A stretch of DNA of 64,000 nucleotides from Perkinsus olseni (lineage: Eukaryota), in the NCBI GenBank assembly GCA_013115125.1, contig JABANN010000041.1, forward strand, positions 1 through 64,000, written 5' to 3'. Below, in pieces: positions 25,301 to 58,987 of the stretch; the first letter of the stretch is position 1, and each line of letters starts with the position of its first letter. The position numbers and the translations under genes are program-made. The notes below the pieces were generated by a model. It was not told where the DNA came from and ran no database searches. It saw only the letters and a program-made list of their open reading frames with translations.

Positions 25301-27627
25301 CGCGCCTTTGCCCAACTCCTCATCATTAATCAAGTCATTCAAATACACATCATCAACCGGGAACCGCTGGCCTTGAATCGTGATAGCCTTCGGCGCCGTA
25401 CCGTTGTTCAAGTCCGTGAAATACCTGACAGACCTCCGCCTCCCACACTACTCAACAGCACGATTCCCGTTAAAATAATGGGGTCGTGGAGAATGTTCGA
25501 AGATTCCCTCAACAACCCAAACGCGATCGACTCCAATAATTCGCTATCCGTTGTCCTGCACTTTCTCACGTGCTACAACCATCTGAACTCATCTCCACAA
25601 CCACTACATCTGCCATCCTACTGTGAGAAAAGATCCGAATTAAGTGTAGCGCTCATGATGACCAATTTAGTGTCACCGTTCTCCGGCCTCAGCAACAACC
25701 GCTTACAGATCAGACTCAGGAAATCAGAGTCCAAGGTGCGCTCGTGGACCTAGAGAAAACCATAATCGGTACAGGGTGCTCGTCAGGAGGGTGCAGGTGA
25801 ACACCTCTCACCTCGTCGAGCACAATATGGGTATACAGATGAACGTCGTCTGGTCTGTGGATGAGCACTTGCAACAGATATCCTGTCGTCACGTACCTGA
25901 ATAAACAAGACGCCTAAAGGAGACGAGTTCCAGTGTGTTCAGGAGTTCTGGGTCCAACGCCGAGAACCGGCTTAGTCAGACTAGCACTGCCGTATCTTGT
26001 TTCATAAGGGATGAGTTCAGTCAATTTAGCCAAGTTTAGGCAGCTCCCGCAACATGCCGCGCCTGAGTAGGCCTCGTGAAATCAGAGACCGAACATCTCA
26101 CCAGCGAAACGCCCCTCCACACTAAGCCACACACCGCCACTTACTCAATCTGCGTATCCTCGGACACGTTGCTCTGCCCCGACACACGGTAGCCCGTTAC
26201 TTGGCCCAAAGTGTTCGGGTTGCAAAATCCAGCAACTCTGATCACTAGAGCATTGAATAGAGCGCAAAGGCCATCACTCCTTACCTGCGAGCGACCTGAA
26301 TCGCAGCAATCCTGCGGGGCTGAGTGCACACAATCTTCGCAAGACGTCTACCTGCGGCCCAAGCAGACTCAACAAACCAGGGACCCTCAGTGGCCATAAA
26401 CCCGACCAAAAACTGTGCTTGGTTGCGCGTACTAGTGATCGCACTTCACAATTCGATTCCGACTCGGCTGATTACTCAGCTAATATCACATGGTCGATCG
26501 GCCTGGCTTCACCTTCCAGCGCTGTAGCGCCATCGGTCGCGAACGAGGAGAGTTCGCTGCATGGTCCCTACCGAATACTACCAGCCTCAGTTCCGCGATT
26601 TGGACCGACGTCTTGATCATCCTCAGCGAGCAAGAGAAGAGGAATCATCGTAGTCTTCCCAGATCCAGTGTCACCCTCGATGCAGGCGACTCTATGCCTC
26701 CGAACTCGCTTACAAACCTACACGGTGTGATATATTGTATCTTGCATGGGTCAACCTCGGATATGTCAGCGATTGTTACCTTCTCGCCCACTCGGAAAAC
26801 GGGCAAAGCCGTGCATTCACCTTCTGGAAAACGCACCTGACCAACCCTCCACACAGTGCCTAACGAGCTCTGCTTCTTACCTTGCCATCAGCGCCGGCCA
26901 TTTGCCTCAGCTTCCTCATGTTGCTGTCATCATCATCGTCATCCTCATCCTCATCGAAGTACGCGAAATCCTCATCGTCGTCATCATCGTCGTCGTCGTC
27001 AGCGCCATCGTCGGCTAAATCGGGGTCCACGCAGTCTCCTTCAGCTCTCTCTTCCGATTCGCCTGCAGCGTACCTATCAGGTAGTCGCTATAACTTCTAC
27101 GGATGAACCATTCCATTTGACACGCCCTTAACTCCTTCATCATGCCCGAGAGAGCGAAAGCGAAGCCGTGAGCAGCATAACCAGTTCACACAGATGCAAA
27201 GAAGCCTGCTCATTCAGAGTTCTATCAGAAGCGAGTTCAGTCAAACAGGCCTACTATTTCTCCCAAAGCAACCCACCGCCAAGTGCAGGTTGGCGGTAAG
27301 ACAATGGGGGATCGATAAGCCGATCCAGCAGCAGGCAACAACCATGACAACACTCAGTTGCTACTGCCACTGTAGATCGATTAGCACACATAATTGCCGG
27401 CGTGGAGATATCCGTCTCCTTCACCATCATTCGTACTCTGGCTCCCCCCCTTCCTCCTCTTCAATCGCTATGCTCTCCGCATCACTGCTGCTGGTATCGG
27501 ATTCAACCGAAACCCCATCCTCGTCGTCGTCGGACCAATCATCATCCAACTGGCGCTCGTCGATTTCGGCCACCCGGGAGAGCATGGAGAATGAACAAGC
27601 CTGTCCGACAGCCTCCCCCACATCCAT
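22338..27627 (-). CDS. DExH-box (RHA family) RNA helicase with an acidic N-terminus, many exons
   Basis: GDTGSGKTT (I), TQPRRIAA (Ia), YVTTGYLLQ (Ib), DEVHER (II), MSAT (III), LVFVPG (IV), PLHS, ATNIAESS (V), RAGRTGR (VI). Confidence 0.93.
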
Positions 27628-44519: not shown

Positions 44520-45671
44520 CTAAGGTAACAATGATGAACTCAGCTCTCTCCAAGTATTCTCTCCGGGTCTCGCAGAGCAATCTTCGTGCGGTACCGCCCA
44601 TCGGTGACGGTACTGAGCAATCTCGACGGTCGAGTTTTCTAAGTCGAAATGTGTGAAGTAGGCCCGAAAGAAGGGCACGCCGAGATGCACAGTCTTAGAC
44701 TCGGTCGGCACAATCGCTAGTATGCGCAACGTGTCCGAGTACTCTTCGGTGTAGTAAGCAGGGCGCAGCACCAGACATGCTCCGTCAGAGAAGTCGCCCA
44801 AGTTGAGTTGAAGTATCGGCATGCGCTCCATCTCAGTATTCCTAATCACCCACTTGTTGCCCTCGTGATCAACTCCCGATCTGTCCAGCATCGAAGTTAC
44901 TTTTTCGTAAAGTTGGGTGGGTAGCCGGATAAGAGCATCACCCGTATCGAGTACGGCCAGCTTGTTGTCCAATACGATGAACATCGACCCTTCAGTGGCT
45001 ACGCTCACGCTAGAGAGCCTCAGCTGTAGGAGAGACGACGTTTGCGAAGCGCTCGGCTGCACCAGCTCCATGTGTCTCATCGCGAAGACTGCACAATCGC
45101 ACTGTCCACCTAGAGTCAGCGTCCCATCTAGGTGTGTGCTCTGCTCAGGAGTGCACACACTGAACCTTCGCTCTTGGATAACCCCGGCTGCGTAGAGCTG
45201 CGTGAGGAAGGGCGAGGGGCCGCCCGGCTGAGGCTGCCCTAGACCGAGAAGACCGTGAGGCTCTTCTTCGATCGATGGCGAATTGAAGCCGATGATCAGC
45301 CCGAAGGTGGCATTGTGAATCACTCGACCGCCAATGGTGATTGAACCCTCATGCATCACAAAAGTAACATGAGTGTCGTCGCCAAATTCGACGAAGAATT
45401 TCCGCGAGGAGCGGTAGGGATCACAACCATCCGGACATGTATAGCATCCTGAGCTCAGCGTCGTACAGCTGCGATCGGTGTAGGTCTTCTCGTACCACTC
45501 CTTGTACACCACGAAGAGCGCCTGACTGCCCGTGTCTACTATCAGCCGCTGCTCCTGCTTATCAAATTCCATAGCTACAGCCCCTCCCTCGATGGGAAGG
45601 GTGATCTCTGCAGCCTCCATCCGCCAGAGCAAAACAAGTGCCGAGGTGAGAGCTCTGGCGATCGAAGTCAT
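44520..45671 (-). CDS. Pepsin-like A1 aspartic protease, signal peptide, intronless
   Basis: LIVDTGS and AVLDTGD catalytic motifs, GLLGLG, HLGVPFFRAYFTHFD. Confidence 0.92.
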   Translation of the reverse strand: MTSIARALTSALVLLWRMEAAEITLPIEGGAVAMEFDKQEQRLIVDTGSQALFVVYKEWYEKTYTDRSCTTLSSGCYTCPDGCDPYRSSRKFFVEFGDDTHVTFVMHEGSITIGGRVIHNATFGLIIGFNSPSIEEEPHGLLGLGQPQPGGPSPFLTQLYAAGVIQERRFSVCTPEQSTHLDGTLTLGGQCDCAVFAMRHMELVQPSASQTSSLLQLRLSSVSVATEGSMFIVLDNKLAVLDTGDALIRLPTQLYEKVTSMLDRSGVDHEGNKWVIRNTEMERMPILQLNLGDFSDGACLVLRPAYYTEEYSDTLRILAIVPTESKTVHLGVPFFRAYFTHFDLENSTVEIAQYRHRWAVPHEDCSARPGENTWRELSSSLLP

Positions 45672-49202: not shown

Positions 49203-51173
49203 ATGAAATTCCTTTTACCCACGCTTGCCTTAGTGGCAACTTCTGTCCTTGGGGCTAAGGACAGCAGTGAAAATATCGATGGCCCCGTGGTTGGTATCGA
49301 TCTGGGTACTACTTACTCATGCGTAGGAGTCTACAAGAACGGCCGTGTCGAGATCATCCCCAACGACCAGGGAAACCGTATTACTCCTTCCTACGTCTCC
49401 TTCACTGAGGACGATCGCTTTGTGGGCGAGGCTGCCAAGAACGAGGCCGCCGTGAACCCTCACAATACCGTGTTCGATGTTAAGAGGCTCATTGGCCGTC
49501 GCTTTAATGACAAGACCGTCCAGAAGGACAAGAAGTTGTTGCCTTACAAGATCGTTAACAAGAATGACAAGCCCATGATTTCCGTTGAGGTCAAGGGCGA
49601 GGAGAAGGTGTTCAACCCTGAGGAGATCTCTGCTATGGTATTGGGAAAGATGAAGGAAACTGCTGAGAACTATTTGGGTACGGAGGTGAAGAACGCTGTC
49701 ATCACCGTTCCTGCCTACTTCAATGATGCTCAGAGACAGGCTACCAAGGATGCCGGTACTATTGCTGGCTTGAACGTTCTTCGTATCATCAACGAGCCAA
49801 CCGCGGCTGCTATTGCCTACGGACTTGACAAGAAGAACGAAGAGAACATTCTTGTTTACGATCTTGGTGGTGGTACTTTCGATGTCTCCCTTCTTACCAT
49901 TGACAACGGCGTCTTCGAGGTTGTTGCTACTGCTGGCGATACTCATCTTGGTGGTGAGGATTTCGATCAGCGTGTTATGGATCATTTTATCAAGACTTTC
50001 CAAAAGAAGAATCACAAGGATCTTCGTACTGACAAGCGTGCCTTGGCCAAGCTCCGTCGCGAGGTCGAGAAGGGCAAGCGCGCTCTTTCCTCAACCCACC
50101 AGGTCCGTATCGAAGTTGAGAACATCATGGACGGTATCGACTTTTCCGAGACTTTGTCTCGTGCTCGTTTCGAGGAGCTCAATGCCGATTTGTTCAAGAA
50201 CACTTTGGGCCCTGTAAAGTCTGTTCTCTCGGATGCTGGCATGACCAAGGGTGAGATCGATGAAGTCGTTCTCGTTGGTGGTTCTACTCGTATTCCTAAG
50301 ATTCAGTCTCTCATCAAGGACTACTTCAACGGCAAGGAGCCCAACCGTGGCATCAACCCCGATGAGGCTGTTGCCTACGGTGCTTCTGTCCAGGGCGGTA
50401 TCCTCAAGGGTGAAGCGGGTCAGGATCTCCTGTTGTTGGATGTCACTCCGTTGACTCTCGGTATCGAGACAGTCGGAGGTGTGATGACTAAGATCATTGG
50501 CCGTAACACTGTTATCCCGACTAAGAAGTCTCAGACCTTCTCCACCTATCAGGATAACCAGCCGGCTGTCAGCATTCAAGTCTTCGAGGGTGAGCGTCCT
50601 TTGACCAAGGACAACCATCAGCTCGGCAAGTTCGAGCTCTCGGGTATTCCCCCGGCTCCTCGTGGTCAGCCGCAGATCGAGGTTACCTTCGAGATCGATG
50701 CCAATGGTATTCTTAACGTGAAGGCTGAGGATAAGGGCACCGGCAAATCTGAGAAGATCACCATCACCAACGATAAGGGTCGTCTGAGCGAGGATGAGAT
50801 CGAGTCCATGATCAAGGATGCCGAGAAGTACGCTGAGGAGGATAAGAAGGTCAAGGAGCGTCTCGATGCGAGGAACGCCTTCGACGGCTATCTGCGTTCT
50901 ATGCGTTCGGCCGTGGAGGGCAGCGGTTCCTTCAAGGGTCTCGGTGAGAAGATGGACGAGGACGAGAAGACCGAGGTTCTCGATGCTGTGAGTGAGGGCG
51001 AGGAGTGGCTCGAGGCCAACGGTGACAGTGCTGAGCCCGACGAGATCAAGGACCAGCAGAAGGAGGTCGAGGGTGTTTGCGCTCCTATTGTTTCCAAGTA
51101 CTACAACGCTGGTGCCGCTGATGAGGACGAGGACGATGATGACGACGACTACGACTCTCCTGATGAGTTGTAA
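49203..51173 (+). CDS. BiP: ER-luminal Hsp70 (BiP/GRP78), intronless
   Basis: Signal peptide, [38 protein letters not shown]-terminal ...SPDEL retention signal. Confidence 0.98.
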
Positions 51174-51291
51174 AGTGCGTCGCACTACTGTCTTTCCTGA
51201 AACACTGTTTTATACTGGTTCCTTTTCGTGCTTCTGATCACAGCGCGTCTCGCGTTGAGTGAACAACAACACCTGTATTGCAAAACGATGA

Positions 51292-51385
51292 GTCTCGGAT
51301 GATGATACGTGTCTAAATTGGAATTCCTCGTTTCAGTCAGGGCTTCCGCTCTATGCTGATTGAGTACACACCGTTCTGACGAGAC
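51292..51385 (+). ncRNA. C/D-box snoRNA copy 1 (guide antisense to 18S rRNA AACGAGGAATTCC)
   Basis: Terminal stem GTCTCG/CGAGAC, C box ATGATGA 51299-51305, guide GGAATTCCTCGTT 51320-51332, D box CTGA 51376-51379. Confidence 0.85.
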
Positions 51386-51399
51386 ATGACTGTTGCAAA

Positions 51400-51487
51400 G
51401 CATCAATGATGATACGTGTCTAAATTGGAATACCTCGTTTCGGCTAGGCCTCGGTCGATGCCGATCTTTACACACGTTCTAAGATGC
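51400..51487 (+). ncRNA. C/D-box snoRNA copy 2 (variant D box CTAA, one guide mismatch)
   Basis: Terminal stem GCATC/GATGC, C box ATGATGA 51406-51412, guide GGAATACCTCGTT. Confidence 0.7.
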
Positions 51488-51621
51488 ATGAATTGTTACA
51501 CAGCTGGCCTATTTAACAAGCTGAACTAATCCCCCTTAGAAAGGTACGTCGGTGGTGCTAGTCTAACTAAGTCGTACTGTCGTAGGCGTTGGACTTTAAA
51601 CTCACACACAAACAACAGGCT

Positions 51622-51707
51622 GCCGATGATGATACGTGTCTAATTTGGAATTCCTCGTTTCGGTCAAGGTTCTCCCTGATGCCGATCTGTTACACACTTT
51701 CTGAGGC
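51622..51707 (+). ncRNA. C/D-box snoRNA copy 3
   Basis: Terminal stem GCC/GGC, C box ATGATGA 51626-51632, guide GGAATTCCTCGTT, D box CTGA 51701-51704. Confidence 0.85.
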
Positions 51708-51786
51708 TAAAACTTGTCCTTTACACCCTCAAAAATATACGTCATGAATTGCAACTTGTAAAAAGTTCGTATCGATGGAAAATGCA

Positions 51787-53767
51787 TCATACGAGCATGC
51801 GTGGAAGTAATCTTCCAAAAGCGAACTCTTTCCGAATTCCGCTCAGTGTGGTCTTCTCAATGGCCGTCGTGCGCGCCAGCGACTCGGTGTACTTCCCTTC
51901 AGTATAGTCGTCCATCATAGCTCGCAGTGTTTGCCGTGCTTCTTCGAACACGCCTTGGTCCATGTACCTAGCAACGACCTCGCGGGAGGCTGCCAGGGTG
52001 CCACCCACTCGGTGTAGTGGTGAACATGAGCCTTTCTCTTATACAGTCGCCAAAAATTCGCGTGCATCTTCTCGAAAACAGGGCGTATAGCGCAACTGTT
52101 CACGAGAGACAGAAGGGAGTACCTGCAGCTCGGTCTGTAGGCAAAACTGCGTGGGAGACAGAACTCACGGGTAGGCGGTGTTGGAGTTCCTCCCAGCTGT
52201 TGCGCTGATGGCGGTGGGCAACACGTTGCAAATGCCGATCTTGTAGCAGTCATCGAGATAAGCAGGCCGGTTCAATGTCTTCTTGATTCGCGTTACATTC
52301 CGGTTAACGTCGTTCAAGGAGCATTCGCCTGAGACCGAGTTTCGCTGTCAGACTCCAAGCCGCGCACACCTCTGAGTAGGAAGGCCGAGGCCAGCGAAAG
52401 AGATGCTCTAGGGTCGACTCCGGCACCCGATCCGACGAGCTGGGATCCGGGCGAGAACGCGTCCGTGAACATGTGGTCGAAGCTTCGAGGCTGCAAGCGC
52501 ACATCCTTGGACCTGCAACTGGCTGCTGGAGGACAGACCCCGAGTGTTGTACCGCTGGAAAATCGGACTAAGCGCAGGCAGCAGGAAGTGGGTGTTGGGG
52601 AAGGGCACTAGGTTAGAGGTTATCTCGTTGAGATCAACGTTGAGGGAGCCTTCGAACCTCATGGACGCTGTGAGGTCCAACCAACACCTACAACACGAGG
52701 AAAGCTGTCCAGGGCTGGACGCGGCGGGATACCTGGCCACGATGGAGTTCATGTCGTCGAACGTGGTCTGCTTGCTCGAGAACATCCCTCCCCCGCCCTT
52801 CTGTGGGCCACCGCTCACCATCGCAGCGGAGGCGTTGTAGGTGTTAACGATACGAGCAAGGGCGTCGTTGCCTACCACGATGTTGCCAGCTGACTGCCGA
52901 GTGCGCCACTGACTTATTGGCAGAACGCAGCTAGCATTCTCCCTGAGTTTCGTGAGGGACAGTATAGCGTTGTACGGCGAGGTGATGACATCATCTTCGG
53001 CGTCAATGGTAGGGAAGAGAGCCGACACGAAACGGTACGCCTTCGACCCGTACCTACTTGTGACACGCTCATTCACGATGGGCAGGAAACTCACTCGTCC
53101 TCAAGCCTCTCCAGTATGTAGGAGCCGAGTCCACTGCCGGTGCCTCCGCCGAGGGAATTCACGCAGAAGAAGGCCTGCAGACTATCACACGCTTCCACTG
53201 CATATCGGACCTTCTCCATCACAGAATCACCGTAGGTCGCGCCATACCTGCCAGCTGATGACGTGATGGTGTAGTCGAGAGCAGCAGTTACCCGAAATAA
53301 CCGTGGGCCCAGTTGTTCCCGGCACCCGACACATCGGTTACGCATTGCTGCTGGCGACAGTCGTTCGGCCGCTTTGGGTCACGGAAGAGACTCCCGATCT
53401 TACTGTTGAGGACCTGAGACGATTGCTAGTCCTTCTCTTAGGGAGATGCCACTACCTGGTTTATGACTCCCTGCTCCATATCAACTAGGATGGCACGCGC
53501 ACGCATATTCTCGAGGGGACTGTCACTGCCTGTGGGAATGTCGGAACCGTTGGCATCCAGGTTGCGAAAGAATGTTGAGATGCAGTCGTCGTACCTGAGG
53601 GGCCCTCGCAGTCAACGTGATACCAGAAGGTTCTACATGATAGCTCTGCCCTGAGCCTGTCGGCGGCGCGCTTCGGCCGAATGTTCTCGGATGACAAGGT
53701 CCCAGAACCTCCAGCCGATCTGATTGCCGCACTGGCCGACCTGTATCGTCACCACTTCACGAGGCAT
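51787..53767 (-). CDS. TUBE1: Epsilon-tubulin (multi-exon)
   Basis: [88 protein letters not shown]. Confidence 0.92.
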
Positions 53768-53941: not shown

Positions 53942-56634
53942 TCACGCAAGGGGCGCAGTAATCGTAACTCTGTTCCTCTTCTTGCTGAACTTCGCCTGTG
54001 CCCTGGACTCCTGCACTGTGGCTGGTATTGGTAGTTCCCGCCCATCAACACGGATCCTGTTCGCGCACAGCTCAATGTCGAACCTCGAGGCGTCAGCCTG
54101 TTGATCGGCAGGAGTAATGATGCAGATCAGCTGCCCATCTTTGGTCTCCATGCTCACTCGTGGCTCGTCCTGGGAAGAAGCAATGGAAACACACCTACCT
54201 GATTTTGAAACTAACAGACGATGATGCCTTCATCAGTCGCACCACTTCACCTTCTCCTCAGGGCTCTTCTGCGGGACGTCATCAGCCCACAAAGAGTTGT
54301 AAGAGTGTTTGTCGAAGATCTGCTCAATCTCTCTTTGCATTTTCTGCTGCTCGGCCGGAAGGCCCGAGGATGTCTTCTGCTGTGCCGAGGCAGCTGAAAA
54401 AGAGGCGACGCGAATCCGAGGACTCCCGAAGGATCCCTGGAGGTGTGAATAATTGCTCCTGACCACAATCGACCACATTGCAAACTGAGTACGATTTTTT
54501 CCGATGCGCTTCCGATTCGTGTAATAGGGAGCTCAACGAGCGCGCAACCTTCATGAGGTAATGACACGCGAACCACTAGCCAAACCTATTCCAGGCCGTG
54601 TGCGCTAGAAAGAAAGACAGACGTCCCGGCGTACTGTCAACGATCTTGCACGATTGTCTCAGCTTCTTCGGTAGCCATCCCATTGGGTCGCCGGCGTTCT
54701 CCGGTATGACACCTTCGGTGCTCCCTGATTCACCGTAGAGCACGCCTTTCGTGTTCGTTAGGAAACCCGGCTTGAGAACGCCCCGGCTGCGCCTAATGGC
54801 CGCACCGTTATCCGCTACAACCTGAGATGTAAGTACGAAGTTGGCTTGTCTGGTGATCTGCCACTTAACAGTACTAACAGCAAGCGGTCGTTTAGCTCAG
54901 TCGGTTAGAGCATCGTGCTAATAACGCGAGGGTCGCAGGTTCGAGCCCTGCATCGACCATTTCACTTCGCAAAAACATGCCCTTGCTGTGCTCCCCAACC
55001 CCACCGATCGGACGGAGCGCCGTTCTCATTCTTGGACGTCATTTACCGGCCTTTGTGACCGTGTGACGCCAATATGTTTGGGTCCGCGGTAAATGTTTGG
55101 GTCCGAGGTTCGTGCCGCGGAAGGTAGGCCCTTTGGTACGACTTCTTGCTTTCTCTTATTCCAGACAGCTCTTCCGCTTTCCAACGGATGTGCGCCCTCC
55201 TCTGATGGACTCCTCGCCATCTCATCCGTTACCGGTTACGCGTCGCTTCCACGACCGGGGACCTTAATTTAATTAAGGTCCGAGGTTAAGGTCCGCGGTA
55301 ACGCGCGCGTCTGCGGCCAGGTGTCACCCGGCCTCAACTCGCGCCAGTGACGCAAGAGCCAGAGCGCACTCCCTGACAGGGAGTGCGACAGGGAGTCCCT
55401 GTCTAATGAGTTGCATTGCAGATCTCCTCTCCTACCACTTCTGATGAAGAGATCCCCTACGTCGACCCACCTCGATAAGCTTAGCTTCTCGGGCTCCCGC
55501 TACTTGTTCCGCTGCCGAGGCTTCCTTGACTTCCTCGACATCGTCCTGCTCATCCGCTGGCTCGAATTCGACGGGAGTGTTCGTCTGCTCATCGAGGAAC
55601 TTATAGGAGGCCTTGAGGAACCTGGTGGACGGGACATGGTTGCAGAGGCGGCATTCCCCACGTTAATCTCCTGGCTACTTCCACCCCCGGGAGTTGACCT
55701 CCTTCACTGGCTTGGCGTAATTCTGGACGTTTCTCAGCGCCACCGTGACGAGGTCCACAACTAAGGACTGCCGCGTGGTCTCCATCTAATGAGAGGGGAT
55801 ACTTATTGGCCGCTTCAGCGACAAAGAGGGGAGGAGCTATGTGCGATAGTTCAGAACTTAGCGCCGTCGCCTGCTTCGTTGGACTTGAATCGACGTGCTG
55901 AGCTGAGCTATCCGGGGTTCGCCCTAGTGCTGTGTGAGCATGGCAGCGAGCAGACCAATAAATCTTATTTTCTCGTGGCGAGATGCGGTCTTCAAGGCTC
56001 GAGCAACGGAATCGTTGATGGATCCCAAAACCCGATGAGGGTGACAGGAGTCCCACCTTCCCTCCTCGTTGAATGATCGGCACACAGTCGGCGAGTTTCG
56101 ATACCAACCAGGGCGCGAAAATGACGTCAATAGCCACACACGCGTTGCCCGCCCTGTCGAAGACTTTCCGGAAGCTGCCGACGTCCACCGGCACCTGATC
56201 AGCTCCGATCCCCTATGATGCTGGCCGTACTGGGAAGAACCTCCGATCTTTACCTGCATATTTCTGATCCCCATTTTGTCAACCAGATGGCCGTCCGCCC
56301 TAGCCCCACTGGGCAGCAGAGGACCCTCGACCAATGGATGGCCGCAAATATTAACGAACATTTTCGTGCTGGTGTTCGGGCGCCTGACGAGGATCCAGTT
56401 AGTCCAGTCCCCAACGAGGAGGCTGCTCGCCCACCGCTGAACACCAGCTAGTGTGCGTGCTTCGGGAACTTCACCGATTGAGGTGCTGGACCGAACCGGA
56501 GGAGCAGACGGCACTCACTGATGCAGCGTGCAAGTCGTCTTCATAGCGACCCCAGGCAAGGGAATGAGCTTCGGGCGTGAGTGGAGTCCAGCGCTCGGCA
56601 CAGCCGAGGACGGGTAGTTGGTGGTCCTACTCAT
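53942..56634 (-). CDS. PIH1-domain protein with a C-terminal CS domain (PIH1D/Kintoun-DNAAF2 family)
   Basis: LIPLPGVAMKT, KMFVNICGHPLV, PVDVGSFRKVFDRAGNACVAIDVIF (PIH1-N); AQAKFSKKRNRVTITAP (CS). Confidence 0.8.
54886..54959 (+). tRNA. tRNA-Ile(AAT)
   Basis: GGTCGTT TAGCTCAGTCGGTTAGAGC A TCGTG CTAATAA CGCGA GGGTC GCAGG TTCGAGC CCTGC ATCGACC A; full cloverleaf with one acceptor-stem mismatch. Confidence 0.95.
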
Positions 56635-56726: not shown

Positions 56727-58987
56727 TCATGAGGGTTCATGATCATCATCGCCGGCGAGGACGCCTCTGGCCGCGGCTTGCCACTTAGATGTCTCACCTG
56801 AGACACCAGCACAATAATGGAGGGGTCGACTCACGAGCAGTGATATAGACCTCTGGTGGACTTCAGTAGCTTCTCTGCCGCTGAGTGTGTTTCGACTCTG
56901 TCACCCCTCGCCGCTGTAATCGTAGATGCTCTGTGAGGGAAGAGCTTCTCGTACAGAAAGACCAGGACCTGCGCGGACTGCCCGGTAGGCCCGACTAAGG
57001 AAGGCTAGCTGCCTGCACCGTCTACATAACACCAGTGAACCGTGCGATCACTAGCTTCATCATAGTAGCATCCCGTTATCAACTCCCAATCCTGTAGCTT
57101 CTCCACCTTCTGCTGTTCAGTCTTTCTCGTTCACAACAAGCCCTTGATGCATTCTACGACTACATTCCCCACAACGACCCCGCACGTCACCTCTTCACTG
57201 GACACTAGCGAGTCGAGCATATCCTGCCGCGTGTTACGAGGTGACGTTTGCTTCAACCCATAGCCGCTGTATCTTCGTCTACAGGCATCCTGGCAGAGCC
57301 AGTACCCTCCGAAGGTGGCGAGGCCACCGCTCTCACCTTGCGGGCCTCGTCAACGCAAGCGAGGAAGTAGTCCTCGAGCTCAGCCTGGCGGACGTATCTT
57401 TGACTGGCAGCTTCCTCGAGCATGTCATGTGTGCGTCTCAAGTCCCTGAGCTCTCTCTCCAACTCCCCTATCTTGGTGAGGTACTCGGCTTCTAGGGAAG
57501 ACACCTTGCCTAACAAGGCGGAGGTACTGAAGGCCGAGGGCGAAGCTGTTCCAGCCTACTCGCTGCTTCAACCATGGACATACCGCTTCTCTCCGCTGTG
57601 ACATACTGAGGTCGTTGAAGGCCAGACGTCGCGAGATGAGCACCTATTCGTTGCATTTCGACATGCGACGGAGGGATGTCGGCAGTCGCATTCTCCCGCA
57701 TGCTGAGGCGAGGACCTTGCAGCAAAACCCCACCCGATGCATCGCCAGCCGCAGGCTCCCCGCTTAGGTCTGGCGCCCTCGTCCTCTTCAGCACCGCCTT
57801 GAGCACCTTAACAGCAGCAGCGTGACGCACTGCCCTCAAGCAGCCTCTACTTTAGCCTGTCGCTTAGATGCCTTCATCTGGTCTTCCAAATACCTCTTGT
57901 CTTCACTCAATGCCTCAGACCGAGCTTGCCACGTCCCAACCTGACTTTCCGACTTTCCGCTCCGTCGTGAGCGTGTAGCTAACACCCTGCTCGGGGCTGA
58001 GCTCGGTTACCTCCTTGCGGTAGTCCTTGCATAAAGCGTCCAGGCGTAGCGCCTCAGACATGAACCACTTGAGCTCCTTCTCCAACTCCTGGACCCTCTT
58101 GTCTCGCCGCACCTTGTCACCTTCTTTGTCTGCTTTCACCTTGAGTTCCCGGAAGCTCTTCTGGACCGTGCTCCTGCCAGCCAAACTAGACTGACTCATC
58201 TCCAACGCCCCAGCTACATGTGGGATTTGTACGACAGCATAAAGTCATGCTCATGCCTCTGCAGGAGGTCAGCCACCCTCTCCGGAAGCGTCGCAGCCAG
58301 AGTGTTGAGTTGGTCGAAGAGGCCCAGTACTGAGAGACAACATGAACTCAATGCTCACCTTTTGATACAAATTTCCCCAATGAAAACAAGCTATAGACCC
58401 CCAAAATATTGCACATGAAACCCGTGTTTTTATAGCTTCAAGGTGATGCAAAAAAGGGCCCACAACTCTCTGATGCTGCGGAATGTGAAGATGTCACAAT
58501 TACCGTTTGCAAACTTTCGAAGAATTCTCTCCCATGGCGCAAGAGGCGACACATAGCTCGTACTGTTCTCAAGTTTTCAAGAATGAGTCTCTTTTCTAGT
58601 CACCCAGTAGAATTAAGTTACTCATAATGATGAAAATATCAGCATGCATATTTGCACCAGTCCTGATACGTGAAAATGATCATAAGCCTTCAAACACTAA
58701 TAGTGGACAAACAACATCCCCACGAAGAAGTGGATCGGGCTCCTACCCCTAGGTCCGGCCACAGGCACGCTAGCTAGAACGGAAGCCTTGTTCTCAAGTG
58801 CCCCAGGCTCTAGCGCTTGGTCATGGCTCTGCGACCCTCGGCGCTCTCTCTCGAGATTAACGCCGGTGAGGAAAGCTGACGAGTCATTCGCGTCGTCTCG
58901 GAGAGTCTCCGAGGAGCTGCTCCCCAGGATTCGCTCCACAGTTTCGGAGGACAAGGAGTCCGCTGTAGGAGGCTTGTCTTGATGCAT
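56727..58987 (-). CDS. Multi-exon coiled-coil protein, possibly cilia/basal-body associated
   Basis: [53 protein letters not shown]; heptad-rich exons. Confidence 0.6.

Follow-up and report, generated by a model that had tools for sequence, protein, structure and literature searches.

The locus behind BiP

The window analysed here is the first 64,000 nucleotides of the Perkinsus olseni contig JABANN010000041.1, and the locus described lies on its plus strand, just behind a BiP-type HSP70 gene (49203..51173). This gene is a single 656-aa open reading frame (ORF) with a hydrophobic N-terminus, a C-terminal PDEL and a Pfam HSP70 match (E 9e-262); from its termini, we infer that it encodes the ER-type protein, BiP. 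Its 3′ UTR (51174..51245) reaches to the likely main mRNA end at about 51237, where the BiP contig of sequencing run X8 stops. Three related units follow on the same strand, at 51292..51385 (copy 1), 51400..51487 (copy 2) and 51622..51707 (copy 3), with a dispersed repeat between the second and the third (51500..51613, plus strand). Beyond them is a convergent gene of the tubulin family; it contains an intron, and its 3′ part occupies 51915..52821 (minus strand; tubulin matches E 2e-10; spliced joint at 52327-52369 in run X1). Elsewhere in the window are a tRNA gene (54886-54959, 64.7 bits), a single-ORF aspartyl protease gene (44520-45671, minus strand) and a weak C/D-like unit consisting of a box C and a 4-bp stem (58627-58700), which has no Rfam support on that strand.

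Three tandem units with box C/D anatomy

The first-pass annotation described three copies of about 90 nt starting about 120 nt after the BiP stop codon, and this is what we found: the copies are 94, 88 and 86 nt long, and copy 1 begins 118 nt after the stop. In copy 1, a terminal stem (51292-97/51380-85) encloses the C box (51299-305), the 18S guide (51320-32), D′ (CAGT, 51334-37), C′ (ATGCTGA, 51353-59) and D (CTGA, 51376-79). Copy 2 has its stem at 51400-04/51483-87, C at 51406-12, a guide with one mismatch at 51427-39, D′ (CGGC) at 51441-44, C′ (ATGCCGA) at 51458-64 and a D box reading CTAA at 51479-82. The corresponding parts of copy 3 are the stem (51622-24/51705-07), C (51626-32), the 18S guide (51647-59), D′ (CGGT, 51661-64), C′ (ATGCCGA, 51679-85) and D (CTGA, 51701-04). 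Box C (RUGAUGA) lies near the 5′ end of all three copies. A D box had also been claimed for each; box D (CUGA) lies near the 3′ end of two of them and fails in copy 2 (CUAA). Similarly, the conserved core and the D′ box given as CAGT/CGGT hold for copies 1 and 3 but not for copy 2, in which the core reads GGAATACCTCGTT, with one mismatch, and D′ is CGGC. With its guide mismatch and CUAA box, copy 2 is probably weakened or decaying.

The terminal stems (6, 5 and 3 bp in copies 1, 2 and 3) each have a different sequence, as had been described. The broader statement that structure is conserved and sequence is not applies to these stems but not to the remainder of the copies; the mean column identity is 81%, and the copies share a 45-nt core that is 87-93% identical. 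Pairing of D′ (CAGU/CGGC/CGGU) with C′ (AUGCUGA/AUGCCGA) is kept in 15 of 15 cells. One two-sided change occurs in this pairing and a further one in the inner hairpin between D′ and C′; this covariation is that of three paralogs, and 52 of 500 shuffles score equally high. The C′/D′ motifs have standard pairs in place of one of the two G-A pairs, and C′ is without its first GA. The internal pairing annotated as ACGTGT/ACAC is present as GTGT/ACAC in 3 of 3 copies, and the internal helix is kept in 20 of 21 cells. In copy 3, the ACAC element does not appear to be purely structural, in that it lies within the predicted LSU guide described below.

Whole-copy folding energies are no better than those of shuffles (z −0.33, −1.72 and +0.51), so the case for snoRNAs rests on boxes, stems and guide. 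The guide 13-mer has three matches at ≤1 mismatch in the window, compared with 0.06 expected, and none of 100 shuffles reaches three. A pattern of box C plus guide matches the 39.9-Mb genome four times, at the three copies and on the antisense strand of 18S, and a model built from the three copies and searched within the window matches just those three. The host also has fibrillarin (PF01269, 295 bits). Taken as a whole, the best explanation, and one that we regard as likely, is that the three loci are paralogous box C/D snoRNA genes arising from tandem duplication. This agrees with the identity assigned in the annotation, on the grounds of boxes, terminal stems, the C′/D′ hairpin and complementarity to host 18S. 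The locus is known here from its sequence and from RNA contigs; the mature small RNAs and the methylation are both predictions.

The repeat between copies 2 and 3 has at least 41 matches at E≤1e-5 (40 of 104 candidates scored). At nine repeat loci examined, a fixed (CA)n 3′ end is common to all and the 5′ ends vary. Repeats resembling target-site duplications (8-14 nt) flank six of the nine, the shorter ones possibly by chance, and none is resolved for the window copy. We read the element as the 5′-truncated 3′ end of a non-LTR-type retroposon with a (CA)n tail, and its presence would account for the 113-nt difference in the start spacing of the copies (107 versus 220). An H/ACA RNA in this spacer was considered and rejected, as the folding of this stretch is poorer than that of shuffles (z +1.21) and its sequence belongs to a dispersed repeat. 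Another short piece of the repeat, diverged in sequence, is on the minus strand at about 25952-25987. The spacer after copy 2 (51489-51502) resembles the D-guide region of the plant snoRNA snoR22 in a 13-nt match that is partly made by the retroposon start, and the spacer after copy 1 is similar to it as well; the likeness to snoR22 is probably a coincidence.

A predicted guide to 18S rRNA

The host rDNA contig G000:C488 is a partial assembly (18S 3′ half, ITS1, 5.8S, ITS2 and LSU 5′ part), and about 2.6 kb of rRNA was compared with the copies (18S 3′ half, 5.8S and LSU 5′ part). It carries 18S AACGAGGAATTCC, and the complementarity that had been claimed for the guide is therefore found in the host itself. 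The D′ guides of copies 1 and 3 form 13 of 13 pairs with it (duplex −21.5 kcal/mol), and that of copy 2 forms 7+5 pairs around the mismatch (−17.0 kcal/mol). D′+5 falls on the G of AACG in 18S AACGAGGAAUUCC (G000:C488:2507), as the annotation had predicted. This G lies 67 nt before the C that we take to be the C1639 equivalent in host 18S, matching 1572, and 3 nt from the equivalent of Bud23's m7G1575. In yeast 18S, Gm1572 is placed by snR57 and m7G1575 by Bud23 (PMC4344503, PMC5699541), and the snR57 guide, labelled S1572, ends in CGTTT plus the box (PMC3116282). Because the register of the copies' guide equals that of yeast snR57, its target corresponds to G1572, and the register supports the D′ assignment independently of the C′/D′ pairing. 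Copies 1 and 3 would very probably direct 2′-O-methylation of this G, whereas copy 2 is probably a weak guide to the same site.

The genome contains two further guide-like 13-mers, and because both are without C/D context, the cluster copies are the only candidates for the 18S site. The D-side element of copy 1 (51365-51374) is identical, in the sense orientation, to 10 nt of 18S near C1639, which is at about chance level. The element after box C was considered as an extra rRNA-pairing site and rejected: it forms 8 pairs and 1 G·U at an 18S position some 510 nt away from the target, a level reached by many chance matches.

A candidate LSU guide in copy 3

Copy 3 has a second candidate guide at box D (51688..51700, plus strand), which is complementary to host LSU GGAGUGUGUAACA on G000:C488 and places D+5 on the first U (G000:C488:166). 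Positions 3-13 form 11 Watson-Crick pairs and positions 1-2 form G·U pairs (duplex −17.4 kcal/mol). Among the 655 15-mers upstream of CTGA in the window, two reach 11 pairs; one is copy 3, and the other is without box C in a plus-strand box scan. Copies 1 and 2 keep a 7-nt D-side core but fail as box D guides, with at best 6 and 5 contiguous pairs; the copy 1 D-side guide has an extra C, and just 7 nt match the LSU. In 3 of 3 copies, the D-side core also pairs with the element after box C (−5.2 to −8.5 kcal/mol), and this internal helix keeps a C-C mismatch where the rRNA offers G. Judging from these pairings, we favour the view that copy 3 is a double guide that also targets the LSU, at the equivalent of Arabidopsis U1276. 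This guide, the retroposon end and the apparent decay of copy 2 had been missed in the first-pass annotation.

The D guide of Arabidopsis snoR22 (25S Am1263, Um1278) shares a 10-nt core, UGUUACACAC, with copy 3 and addresses the same LSU segment (PMC8583080). It targets the second U (Um1278; the host equivalent is G000:C488:164), whereas copy 3 would target the first U, 2 nt upstream. The A1263 guide of snoR22 is absent from all three copies and present on another contig, G000:C537, and because a gene with both snoR22 guides exists there, copy 3 is not a snoR22 ortholog. On that contig, a four-member C/D snoRNA cluster (G000:C537:49685-50070) is partly duplicated 1.5 kb further on, at 51203-51440 (L133, L134). 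Among its members are a double guide for the snoR22 sites, present in two copies and with the guides in the opposite order to that of Arabidopsis, and a gene resembling snoZ122 (33.9 bits against a cut-off of 38). The predicted LSU target position of copy 3 is absent from the methylation tables in the parts of PMC8583080, PMC11542601, PMC2656528 and PMC3116282 covered here, and other supplements or protist maps may list it.

Expression and genomic setting

Among 24 sequencing runs found, 20 cover part of 50700-51900, and four were compared in detail (X1, X8, X10 and X23). Coverage of the locus consists of contigs from X1, X8 and X10, which carry no strand, ends or level; X23 has 0 raw reads and is uninformative. 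X1 is RNA, since the downstream tubulin-family gene shows a spliced joint in this run and the intron concerned has zero depth. All of the cluster is covered in X1: one contig extends without a break from BiP to 51601, and the next takes in copy 3. In X10, the BiP contig ends at 51306, inside copy 1. In X8, which its uneven depth suggests is also RNA, the BiP contig, at depth 75, stops at 51237, a second contig of 457 nt covers 51267-51712 at depth 4.55, and there is no depth on the downstream gene. The X8 cluster contig extends 5 nt beyond copy 3 and finishes in additional A-rich letters, seen in this one contig. The co-transcription with BiP that had been suggested is consistent with two of the three covered runs, in which contigs are unbroken or continue from BiP, whereas X8 has a break at 51238-51266. 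We consider read-through from BiP to the cluster plausible on the basis of these strandless contigs, which do not by themselves establish one single transcript.

Ten others among the 24 runs cover a fraction of 0.43-0.46 of 50700-51900, which would fit a BiP mRNA end near 51237. It is probable that the main BiP mRNA ends some 55 nt short of copy 1 and that the cluster is carried on a rarer RNA. The gap between BiP and the cluster contains no spliced joint or leader-like loose end in any of the three covered runs, in contigs that drop rare forms; with this reservation, we rejected a 3′-UTR intron or trans-splicing at 51243. The genome contains 30 exact copies of the Perkinsus-type spliced-leader 21-mer, compared with 0 for a control pattern; this 21-mer was reported for Perkinsus marinus (PMC9399869). 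Two of them that were inspected (L131, L132) have no GT after them, so that they resemble relics carried by reinserted mRNAs more than genes for leader RNA. Another BiP gene ending in PDEL, which is 81% identical to the window BiP, lies at G000:C2621:21705-23666, and three tandem cytosolic HSP70 genes ending in EEVD lie at G000:C1660:35964-42609. No C/D cluster is present within 900 nt downstream of any of these four genes.

The most likely expression route, which we rate at somewhat better than even, is read-through past the BiP poly(A) site followed by trimming. RNA polymerase II would run past this site, near 51240, and the downstream cleavage product would carry all three snoRNA units. The snoRNP proteins would assemble on the units in this product, and exonucleases would trim it to the snoRNP-protected ends, giving the mature RNAs. 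Each RNA would then close its C/D kink-turn, bind the fibrillarin complex and pair its D′ guide with the 18S segment. The retroposon end would have landed in the spacer between copies 2 and 3 at a later time.

Comparison with known snoRNAs

The copies address the same 18S segment in the same register as S. cerevisiae snR57 (18S Gm1572; PMC3116282). However, the snR57 guide lies at box D (ATGA), with an idle D′ (PMC3116282), whereas that of the window copies lies at D′; unlike snR57, the copies are also three tandem genes, and the Rfam snR57 model has no match to them at E≤10. A D′-placed snR57-like guide has been noted in some filamentous fungi ('cf snR57, S1572?'; PMC3116282). As predicted guides, the copies work like snR57 and yet are not filed in the snR57 family, given the D′ guide and the absence of an Rfam match. 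Arabidopsis snoR8 (18S Am1579) has a guide in its 5′ half against the same 18S segment (PMC8583080). It targets the A 66 nt before the C1639/C1645 site, whereas the copies would target the preceding G, 67 nt before; its second guide is directed to 18S U1264 (PMC8583080, PMC11542601).

Similar gene arrangements are known from other protists. In Plasmodium, C/D genes lie just behind ribosomal-protein genes, with PFS9 in the L7a 3′ UTR and PFS11/PFS12 co-transcribed (PMC2656528); in the window, the neighbouring protein gene encodes a chaperone instead. None of the 18 targets listed in the part of PMC2656528 covered here is G1572, and four of the five supplementary files of PMC2811010 contain no snR57-like or snoR22-like guide string. 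The L7a snoRNA was later placed in a 3′-UTR intron (PMC2811010), in contrast to the window cluster, at which no splice joint was seen. Trypanosomes, which are trans-splicing organisms, have polycistronic snoRNA clusters on polyadenylated polymerase II precursors (PMC3273796); no trans-splicing of the window cluster precursor was seen in the three covered runs.

The Rfam comparison proposed in the annotation did not yield a family: none was matched at gathering score by any of the three copies, the best local match being to snoR77Y (19.8 bits versus 52). Eight weak local matches were obtained, every one to a C/D family. Rfam misses these genes, so annotation of the Perkinsus-type lineage is incomplete. 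In a metagenome scan, 82 of the 100 matches listed were rDNA and the other 18 were without C/D anatomy on reading; the pattern also fits antisense 18S. The scanned relatives have no look-alike stretch to the cluster, and no homolog from another organism emerged from these searches, which were weak. A full-text literature search returned nothing on Perkinsus snoRNAs by title or start of abstract, within a collection that covers subscription literature poorly.

Alternative explanations

The degenerate C′/D′ motif may not set fibrillarin at D′+5, in which case the RNAs could be 18S chaperones or could modify a neighbouring base, for example the A of snoR8. The D′ boxes and the loss of the first GA from C′ fit such a role, given that in yeast methylation fell 5-10-fold when either C′ GA was mutated (PMC3116282) and that plants methylate the adjacent A instead (Am1579, snoR8; PMC8583080, PMC11542601). 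We nevertheless think it unlikely, because the guide register is exactly that of snR57 (PMC3116282), the C′/D′ pairing is kept through changes, and several naturally divergent C′/D′ motifs were active in yeast tests (PMC3116282). That the copies are decayed, non-functional remnants transcribed by run-on alone is very unlikely: the guide mismatch and CUAA box of copy 2 and a retroposon end tolerated inside the cluster would be expected of decay, but copies 1 and 3 retain intact stems, guides without mismatches and C and D boxes that agree with the consensus, and the cluster holds the only candidates for the 18S site. A reading of greater weight, although still doubtful, is that all copies are single guides, with the D-side UACACAC maintained solely for its pairing with the element that follows box C, and the copy 3 LSU match being a relic or chance. 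The near-complete conservation of the internal helix, the failure of copies 1 and 2 as guides at box D and the lack of precedent for the exact LSU position in the tables examined would all be consistent with this, as would the fact that the U two bases on is already served by a dedicated snoR22-like gene with two copies on G000:C537. Against it, the 11 Watson-Crick pairs of copy 3 occupy precisely positions 3-13 counted from a D box of consensus sequence, a match equalled by 2 of 655 null 15-mers of which copy 3 is one; its rRNA duplex (−17.4 kcal/mol) compares with −5.5 kcal/mol for its internal pairing; and all three internal helices keep the C-C mismatch. We therefore retain the double-guide interpretation of copy 3.

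With regard to expression, the cluster could be its own transcription unit that merely happens to lie behind BiP, its start being set by a promoter or trans-splice acceptor near 51200-51290. This has a substantial though minority chance of being correct. It would explain why the X8 cluster contig is separate from the BiP contig and why the second BiP gene and the cytosolic HSP70 genes have no C/D cluster behind them; the C/D cluster on G000:C537 is without a long same-strand ORF upstream, the genome contains the 30 spliced-leader 21-mers, and 51218-51243 contains a pyrimidine tract plus CAG. However, the distance between the apparent BiP end and copy 1 is just about 55 nt, the X1 and X10 contigs continue from BiP into the cluster, and a leader-like loose end or joint near 51243 was found in none of the three covered runs (again in contigs that drop rare forms), and read-through with trimming remains our preferred route. 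The annotation had further linked an ER-stress gene to rRNA modification; in this scenario, ER stress would raise BiP transcription and thereby guide supply, tuning 18S methylation. The proximity of the cluster to BiP and the contigs continuous from BiP in two of three covered runs speak for such a link, but we judge it improbable: the second BiP gene does not share the cluster, snoRNA clusters are ordinary in the host genome, as the separate one on G000:C537 illustrates, yeast 18S Gm sites are fully methylated (PMC4344503), and a literature search found no BiP-hosted snoRNA by title or abstract where subscription literature is poorly covered. Even less probable is the combined scheme in which release after BiP cleavage ties guide supply to BiP, one RNA is a chimera of an snR57-type D′ guide and a shifted snoR22-type D guide, and ER stress tunes both methylations. 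If true, the two sites under its influence would be the one next to 18S m7G1575 and the one in the GTPase centre of the LSU.

Implications

The understanding of C/D snoRNAs is left unchanged by this locus, at which an RNA of an ordinary kind would be encoded in a lineage that has been little studied. G1572-type guides are known from yeasts, and the locus would add a Perkinsus-type alveolate to their range; it further predicts one LSU methylation site that is absent from the tables examined. The cluster behind BiP also provides a compact case for asking whether snoRNAs may arise from the downstream product of mRNA 3′-end cleavage.
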